IMG/VR virus record: IMGVR_UViG_3300033145_003080
Location: 1 to 64,000 of that record
DNA: 64,000 nt
Origin: a virus
Reading direction: 5' to 3' (one strand)
Part shown: in pieces, positions 58,330 to 58,641 of the stretch
Layout of the letters: each line of letters starts with the position of its first letter
Numbering within the stretch: position 1 is the stretch's first letter
Position numbers and translations under genes: made by a program
The notes under the pieces: model-generated
What the model saw: the letters and a program-made list of their open reading frames with translations, nothing else
The model's database searches: none
What the model was told of the DNA's origin: nothing

Positions 58330-58641
58330 TTAAGCCAATGGTAGCTTACTGAATATTTTTCCATCGTCAATACATGCGATGGCAGTTAATTGATTATCTA
58401 TATCAGGCTCATTGAATCCGACGAATTGTTTTTCGCGGCGTCCGAGCTCTTCCTACCAGTACTCCAGTGCTGCGAGATGAGGAACCCCGAGACATATCAG
58501 GGTTTCATTGTTCCATTCCCGGTAAAGAGCGATATCACCTCTCAAAGAGTACTCTGCAAGCGCGTGGTTGCCCTGGACGAAGTTATACTTCGGCCCAAGA
58601 TCCTTACGCAGCAACAGGTATAGTTTCTTCGATTTTGACAT
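58330..58641 (-). CDS. Pth2-like peptidyl-tRNA hydrolase containing an in-frame TAG (58453-58455)
   Basis: KLYLLLRKDL.....VQGNHA...WNNETLICL...W[TAG]EEL...F.EPDIDNQLTAIA....LPL; family motifs lie on both sides of the TAG; 103 codons plus TAA. Confidence 0.75.

Follow-up and report, generated by a model that had tools for sequence, protein, structure and literature searches.

A Pth2-like hydrolase gene interrupted by one in-frame amber codon forms a candidate amber-gated cassette with a suppressor tRNA in a standard-code phage

INTRODUCTION

When a short viral gene is interrupted by one in-frame amber codon and a tRNA able to read that codon is encoded close by, is the gene a decaying remnant, or is it completed by readthrough? 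The question was raised by a stretch of 64,000 nucleotides (hereafter the window), corresponding to positions 1-64,000 of the virus record IMGVR_UViG_3300033145_003080, whose full length in IMG/VR is 149,037 bp.

Phage suppressor tRNAs, stop-codon recoding and the presence of PTH2 in jumbo phages are already known. Under code 15, TAG is translated as Gln by means of a phage suppressor tRNA in Lak and crAss-like phages, and this recoding has been proposed to act as a translational timer (Borges et al. 10.1101/2021.08.26.457843; Peters et al. PMC9523058). [quoted passage not shown] 10.1101/2021.08.26.457843). Amber suppressor tRNAs have also been reported from Xanthomonas phage XacN1, a standard-code jumbo phage in which readthrough targets were sought and none identified (PMC5852040). 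The PTH2 proteins of jumbo phages have been interpreted as general factors that rescue ribosomes once tRNAs have been cleaved (Iyer et al. 2021, PMC7824862). A literature search on Pth2 or peptidyl-tRNA hydrolase together with suppressor tRNAs in phages found no description of such a pairing.

We consider it likely that the locus is an amber-gated cassette, in which an intact gene encodes a divergent Pth2-fold hydrolase of ~11 kDa and the UAG at codon 63 is decoded by the cassette's own tRNA(CUA).

RESULTS

Reading frame of the interrupted gene

The gene and its interruption are located as follows.

58330..58641, minus strand: Pth2-like gene of 103 codons, closed by TAA and interrupted at codon 63 by an in-frame TAG
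58453..58455, minus strand: the in-frame TAG of codon 63, which sits in helix 3 of the predicted fold

A sequence-only reading had claimed that the open reading frame track misses an in-frame TAG, that the frame stays open beyond LEYW to a TAA, and that it carries no other lesion. All of this was confirmed by translation of 58641..58330 (minus strand), which gives MSKSKK...LEYW, the TAG, EELGRREKQFVGFNEPDIDNQLTAIACIDDGKIFSKLPLA and the TAA. The TAG at codon 63 is the sole lesion of the frame in the window sequence, with no other stop and no frameshift, and ORF calling lists the gene as a 62-aa stub (P0005). The first in-frame ATG, GTG or TTG downstream of the TAG is found at codon 102, and the downstream part therefore cannot start on its own.

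Protein family, fold and active site

Searches with the read-through protein alone returned no Pfam match at E values up to 10, did not reach the PTH2 gathering score, and gave no PDB match by sequence search, so that family-level searches were needed to place the protein. The PHROG family phrog_3668 ("hydrolase") matches it across the TAG (residues 5-96, E 2e-7), and the full-length homologs found by sequence search are 95-105 aa long and span the TAG column. A family profile search with a cut-off of E 0.001 retrieved at least 3,387 clusters (50% identity), with a length of ~100 aa in nearly all cases. Pfam PTH2 (PF01981) was matched weakly by 82 of 100 family members, with a best E value of 7e-8, and the family profile matched solved Pth2 structures in the PDB, among them 2zv3, the Pth2 of M. 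jannaschii (E 3e-6). An AlphaFold2 model of the read-through protein, computed from a 100-sequence alignment, reached a pLDDT of 97 and a pTM of 0.89. Its best 12 PDB matches in Foldseek were all Pth2, with a probability of 1.00 and TM scores of 0.69-0.81. The Pth2-like identity proposed in the sequence-only reading is borne out by the weak matches of the relatives, the profile match to 2zv3 and the predicted fold. The outcome of comparison with PTH2 profiles was divided, in that the window protein alone is not matched, while most of its relatives are. The family profile, ~100 aa long, matches 26 distinct regions of one 2,457-residue protein from the representative library (P0012), which may be either a chain of Pth2-like repeats or a gene-calling artefact.

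Helix 3 of the model comprises residues 56-68, and the codon-63 TAG lies inside it. Behind the TAG stand E78-P79-D80 and T86, an E-P-D...T-A motif that is nearly invariant across the family. According to the AlphaFold2 model and the family alignment, the 62-residue stub is devoid of strands 3 and 4 and of E78, P79, D80 and T86. It is deduced that function needs readthrough, and the proposal that a complete Pth2-type fold requires the motif behind the TAG is sustained.

The active-site set of Pth2 consists of an N-terminal R-x-D-L...Q-x-x-H-A signature, a loop lysine and the acidic residue of a D-A-G motif. In the profile alignment with 2zv3, the Pth2 signature is matched by R12, D14, Q23, H26 and A27, all of which are invariant or nearly so in the family. 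The fold, the size and the R-x-D-L and Q-x-x-H-A motifs are in common with archaeal and eukaryotic Pth2 (PF01981; 2zv3, 3erj, 1xty, 1q7s). The family is, however, very divergent. The window protein falls below Pfam detection, the loop matching G-K-G-K of Pth2 lacks two residues and has no fixed lysine, and the invariant Glu78 stands opposite an Asp of 2zv3 in the profile alignment, so that the chemistry may differ from that of Pth2. For these three reasons the family is placed, as judged from alignments and the model, beside Pth2 as a divergent sister clade and not among the curated members of PF01981.

The suppressor tRNA and its neighborhood

The RNA and protein genes downstream of the interrupted gene, together with a tmRNA gene elsewhere in the record, are listed below.

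58235..58308, minus strand: odd tRNA-like RNA (ARAGORN "tRNA-???"; Rfam tRNA 34.8 bits)
58226..58125 and 58116..58021, minus strand: two more tRNA-like elements, recognized by eye (fold z -1.7 and -2.3)
57898..58020, minus strand: structured RNA directly 5' of the suppressor tRNA, no Rfam match
57824..57897, minus strand: amber suppressor tRNA (ARAGORN; Rfam RF00005, 54.3 bits, E 2e-10)
57103..57762, minus strand: HNH endonuclease gene, downstream of the tRNA (phrog_10822, E 5e-41)
56079..56978, minus strand: gene for an RlaP-family nucleotidyltransferase, which is RNA-repair-associated (PF10127, E 5e-67)
80244-80644, minus strand, outside the window: full-length tmRNA (Rfam 162 bits; ARAGORN tag peptide ARQDIAVI)

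A cognate suppressor tRNA had been placed about 550 nt from the TAG, and the tRNA-CUA at 57897..57824 was indeed found on the same strand at a distance of 556 nt. The 149-kb genome has no other canonical tRNA. This one has an anticodon loop of CU-CUA-AA, a C1:G72 pair, G73 and no encoded CCA. The label tRNA-Pyl, which ARAGORN gives to any CUA anticodon, was rejected. The architecture of tRNA-Pyl is a small D loop without GG, a 3-nt variable loop and a 6-bp anticodon stem, whereas the RNA of the window is a canonical cloverleaf with GG in the D loop, a UUCGAUU T loop, a variable region of ~6 nt and 54 bits against the general tRNA model.

The association of this tRNA with the Pth2-like gene is conserved. 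Of 50 IMG/VR loci, 46 have a tRNA-CUA on the strand of the gene and at most 3 kb away from it; among loci that can be assessed the count is 46 of 48, two of the remaining four loci ending right after the Pth2-like gene. The tRNA starts no more than 100 nt past the Pth2-like stop in at least 27 loci, often at 0-12 nt, and is the sole tRNA present in 21. Four distant family representatives picked regardless of context all have a tRNA-CUA 10-118 nt downstream. The CUA tRNAs of the loci are heterogeneous, and a tabulation of identity elements from ARAGORN ends is unreliable because the ends are inconsistent. The relative L001 carries at 2597-2671 a CUA tRNA unrelated in sequence to that of the window (Rfam 41.8 bits), which ARAGORN misses and whose anticodon loop is apparently 8 nt long (ACUCUAAC).

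Between the Pth2-like gene and the suppressor tRNA of the window, further structured RNAs are present. The tRNA-like RNA at 58235..58308 has a good acceptor stem, a T arm and an encoded CCA, with a 6-nt anticodon loop, GUUUCA, that contains UCA. The two elements found by eye show acceptor and T-arm features without a canonical anticodon arm and have no Rfam match; of the two, ARAGORN with the intron option gave a low-confidence call only for 58114..58021. The 123-nt RNA at 57898..58020 folds with an MFE of -43.8 kcal/mol (z -3.3; 1 of 200 shuffles folds as well) and includes a UUCG-capped hairpin. Rfam searches over 57000-59200 found no theta or HDV-like ribozyme and no family other than tRNA. 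With respect to protein genes, the RlaP-family gene is also near the cassette in the relative L002, and in L009, L022 and L034 a tmRNA gene is found no more than 3 kb from the Pth2-like/tRNA-CUA cassette. A Tad2-like gene (PF11195) was observed a few kilobases downstream of the cassette in three unrelated loci (L002, 15612-15905; L067, 4154-4471; L068, 2078-2395).

Gene X, the leader and the hairpin upstream

The cassette has the order leader, anti-Shine-Dalgarno hairpin, gene X, Pth2-like gene and tRNA-CUA, and its upstream part consists of the following features.

58998..59066, minus strand: leader mini-ORF with a strong AAGGAG Shine-Dalgarno, read from the sequence
58932..58993, minus strand: anti-Shine-Dalgarno hairpin just past the leader stop (MFE fold)
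58604..58930, minus strand: gene X, 108 aa, basic and all-helical, its 3' end overlapping the Pth2-like start by 38 nt

In 50 of 54 loci, the gene directly preceding the Pth2-like gene is a homolog of X. The AlphaFold2 model of X is a helical hairpin (pLDDT 91), and the protein has no Pfam, PHROG or Atlas match and no significant PDB fold match.

The leader reads M-L-P-L-TAG-ITTQHPP-TAG-LYPRKRKPP-TAA, with its two TAGs at 59054..59052 and 59030..59028. Both TAGs and both Pro-Pro-stop endings are kept in L001, L055 and L002/L004, and a shorter comparable leader (a Shine-Dalgarno followed by M-x-TAG-xxx-P-P-stop) is present in 22 of 53 loci. The hairpin is formed by pairing between GUUAUACUCUUU (58993..58982) and AAAGGAGUAUAAC (58944..58932). 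The latter is the ribosome-binding site of gene X, and the duplex has a dG of -15.0 and a z score of -4.4 against shuffles. Equivalent pairing with a z score of -2.5 or stronger, beating at least 98% of shuffles, was found in 8 of 12 loci, the window included, and the pairing is kept though the Shine-Dalgarno spacers differ among loci. Just upstream of the leader Shine-Dalgarno, a 16-nt motif, ACCAAAACGTATATTA (59088-59103), is invariant in four lineages. It occurs once in the window, and its interpretation as a general phage promoter was rejected on this ground; it may serve the cassette as an operator or promoter.

The genome uses the standard code

Genome-wide recoding of TAG (code 15) was ruled out by the high coding density under code 11 and by ordinary stop usage. 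In every 10-kb bin, the fraction covered by ORFs of at least 100 aa under code 11 is 0.77-1.00. The stops of the 189 predicted genes are TAA in 129, TGA in 31 and TAG in 29, so that TAG is not depleted, and the median extension past TAG stops is 8 codons. One hallmark of code 15 is present, namely the phage-encoded suppressor tRNA with a CUA anticodon, and neither a release-factor gene nor a GlnRS or GluRS gene was found in the 80%-complete genome. Since TAG is the ordinary terminator of 29 of the 189 genes, a strong suppressor would extend many phage and host proteins, and suppression has to be incomplete, short-lived or tolerated.

Other TAGs flanked by open frames were assessed by Pfam, PHROG, ortholog and homolog checks. 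At 28501..29418 (minus strand), ORFs of 175 and 128 aa are parted only by a TAG (28891) and one codon, the upstream ORF ending in a CxxC...CxxC zinc-ribbon-like motif. This pair was rejected as a second TAG-split gene: no Pfam or PHROG match spans the TAG, no homologs of merged length were found, and two related complete phages have no ortholog. The remaining candidates look like antisense or adjacent-gene artefacts.

The amber codon in relatives and the competing explanations

The closest relatives, L001 (SRR26901924) and L055 (Ga0307376), are independent assemblies. Both share with the window the TAG at codon 63 and the open frame behind it, at 82-84% nucleotide identity among the three. The next clade (L002/L004/L056, 64% amino acid identity) has CAG (Gln) at this codon, one transition from TAG, which fits the insertion of Gln. 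The sequence-only reading had named, as evidence against readthrough, sense codons in all close homologs that also lack the suppressor tRNA. The alignment instead gave TAG in both closest homologs, and the CAG clade still has the tRNA-CUA.

Eight further loci carry an in-frame TAG within the Pth2-like gene but not at codon 63 (close to residues 33-36, 46 and 60 or toward the C terminus), with family motifs on both sides and with neighbors that look standard-coded. With the window clade taken once, internal TAGs are present in the Pth2-like gene of 9 of 52 lineages and in none of 50 for the adjoining, homology-defined X gene of the same size class (Fisher p 0.0027). A cruder comparison with all same-strand neighbor ORFs was not significant (9/45 versus 39/332, p 0.15). 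Merging of ORFs under a TAG-sense code inflates that neighbor control, and the X gene was therefore used instead.

These data bear on whether readthrough, if real, is also regulatory. A CAG-to-TAG change would have been near-neutral once a suppressor was present and could then simply have persisted. We regard this account as unlikely, though it deserves some weight. Family members differ at codon 63 (Q, S, A, K, C, G and Y), the sister clade has CAG, and retention of the TAG in three lineages is statistically indistinguishable from chance. The account also matches the "detoxified stop" stage, the first step to code 15, of Borges et al. (10.1101/2021.08.26.457843). It is opposed by the excess of internal TAGs over the X gene, by the finding that no other gene of the 149-kb genome has a supported internal TAG, and by the leader of L002/L004, which keeps its two TAGs even though codon 63 is CAG there. 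That TAG 63 is programmed, in the sense of selected for, is supported only indirectly.

Decay of the gene would predict a different pattern behind the stop from the one observed. If the gene were an inherited pseudogene, with an ancestral nonsense mutation and a slowly decaying remnant, the use of TAG as a normal terminator in this genome and the 62-aa stub given by gene callers would be accounted for, as would a second stop in L055, where 1056-1058 is TGA in place of the TGT (Cys90) of the window, L001 and L002. The TGA, which is additional to the shared TAG 63, may be an error in a 1.2-kb contig, damage to that lineage, or a second readthrough site. The three lineages show no indels or frameshifts despite dS values of 0.8-2.3 behind the TAG. 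Over the 40 codons behind the TAG, dN/dS is 0.18, 0.065 and 0.052, a shortage of non-synonymous changes with binomial p values of 6e-4, 4e-6 and 1e-6, and the core codons 73-97 show 0-1 non-synonymous versus 3-10 synonymous changes among the window, L001 and L055. This purifying selection indicates that the region behind the stop is translated in this frame. With the cognate tRNA also present in cis, a pseudogene is considered improbable. The preference for readthrough over decay, first drawn from the window's letters, is upheld by the shared TAG, the low dN/dS, the missing restart codon and the tRNA-CUA in the operon. The observations support the view that the Pth2-like gene is intact, not decayed.

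It is very improbable that the 62-residue N-terminal product is functional as such, or that two halves are made apart and then associate. Nothing beyond the ORF call itself speaks for either, whereas the stub lacks half of the beta-sheet together with the E-P-D/T motif, the part behind the TAG has no start codon until codon 102, and all other family members are single chains of ~100 aa. A sequencing or assembly error hiding a sense codon, conceivable for a single metagenome-derived record, has almost nothing left in its favor and is for practical purposes excluded by three independent assemblies, each of a different sample, that agree on TAG at codon 63 amid many other differences.

DISCUSSION

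Proposed mechanism

In the reading that we prefer, that of an amber-gated cassette, the full enzyme would probably be made only when the phage tRNA overrides the stop. We infer that the suppressor tRNA is expressed and charged. The residue inserted at codon 63 is most likely Gln, the usual fate of CUA suppressors (literature in Borges et al. 10.1101/2021.08.26.457843). Without suppression, ribosomes on the leader would halt at codon 5, far from the hairpin, the ribosome-binding site of X would stay hidden, and the coupled Pth2-like frame would not be initiated. With active tRNA-CUA, ribosomes would get past the two UAGs of the leader and arrive at the Pro-Pro-UAA beside the hairpin, where termination would be slow. 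Ribosomes at the end of the leader are presumed to open the hairpin, and only those that have passed both UAGs would get there. X would then be translated, and the overlapping Pth2-like frame would be started by coupling. A third readthrough, at UAG codon 63, would complete the enzyme. Because this third event would follow two in the leader, the enzyme level would rise steeply with suppressor activity.

The enzyme would clear ester-linked peptidyl- or aminoacyl-tRNA that builds up when stop codons are overridden. Its role is most likely ribosome-rescue or tRNA-recycling support, with ester-linked peptidyl- or aminoacyl-tRNA as the putative substrate, and such a role fits the phage tmRNA, the nearby RlaP nucleotidyltransferase and the published view of PTH2 in rescue (PMC7824862).

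A more speculative extension is that the cassette is a sensor-effector circuit, in which the Pth2-like enzyme, perhaps guided by X, would deacylate the suppressor tRNA or free its peptidyl form and so hold the override at a set level. The idea builds on the proposal that the enzyme would be made only while UAG is read through; we think it unlikely as it stands. If it were true, the family would be devoted to controlling genetic-code switching, and the amber suppressors of standard-code phages would be explained.

Relation to known systems

The ties of the family to a tRNA-CUA, to protein X and to an amber leader have not been described for Pth2. As in code-15 phages, a phage tRNA-CUA would let in-frame TAGs be translated in a standard-code host. 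Unlike in those phages, in-frame TAGs with support occur solely in one operon of ~750 nt next to the tRNA. A further parallel is prfB, the gene for RF2, in which an in-frame UGA is bypassed by a +1 frameshift and the gene senses its own product. Both are translation-related genes with an in-frame stop whose fate reports on the state of termination or decoding. Here, however, the frame is unchanged, and the thing sensed would be a separate RNA of the same operon, the tRNA-CUA.

XacN1 shares with the present phage the standard code, a tRNA-CUA and a member of the Pth2-like family. In XacN1 and in Stenotrophomonas phage RAS14, unlike here, the domain makes up the C-terminal portion of a longer protein (260-280 aa), with no adjacent tRNA and no internal TAG.

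L071, 961-1800: fused Pth2-like protein, XacN1 ORF364
L072, 2015-2800: fused Pth2-like protein, Stenotrophomonas phage RAS14

The cultured phages XacN1, Xoo-sp13, CM1 and RAS14 have only the fused form, without an adjacent tRNA. The fused XacN1 member scores 25.3 bits against Pfam PTH2, for which the cut-off is 23. By eye, the N-terminal part of the fused proteins contains an HD-like motif (HDIGKP...H...HD); it has no Pfam match.

Significance

What appears to be new is a probable suppressor-dependent readthrough within a self-contained operon of a standard-code phage, gating an enzyme of the translation-rescue type. Amber suppressors are common in otherwise standard-code phages, and the locus supplies a concrete, conserved candidate target beside the tRNA. 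With at least 3,387 clusters in the family, and with the gene almost always followed by a tRNA-CUA in the samples, the data point to a widespread, previously undescribed accessory module of phage stop-codon override. The leader, the hairpin and the in-gene stop would together make up a simple natural circuit, and the cassette may represent a step before full code-15 recoding.
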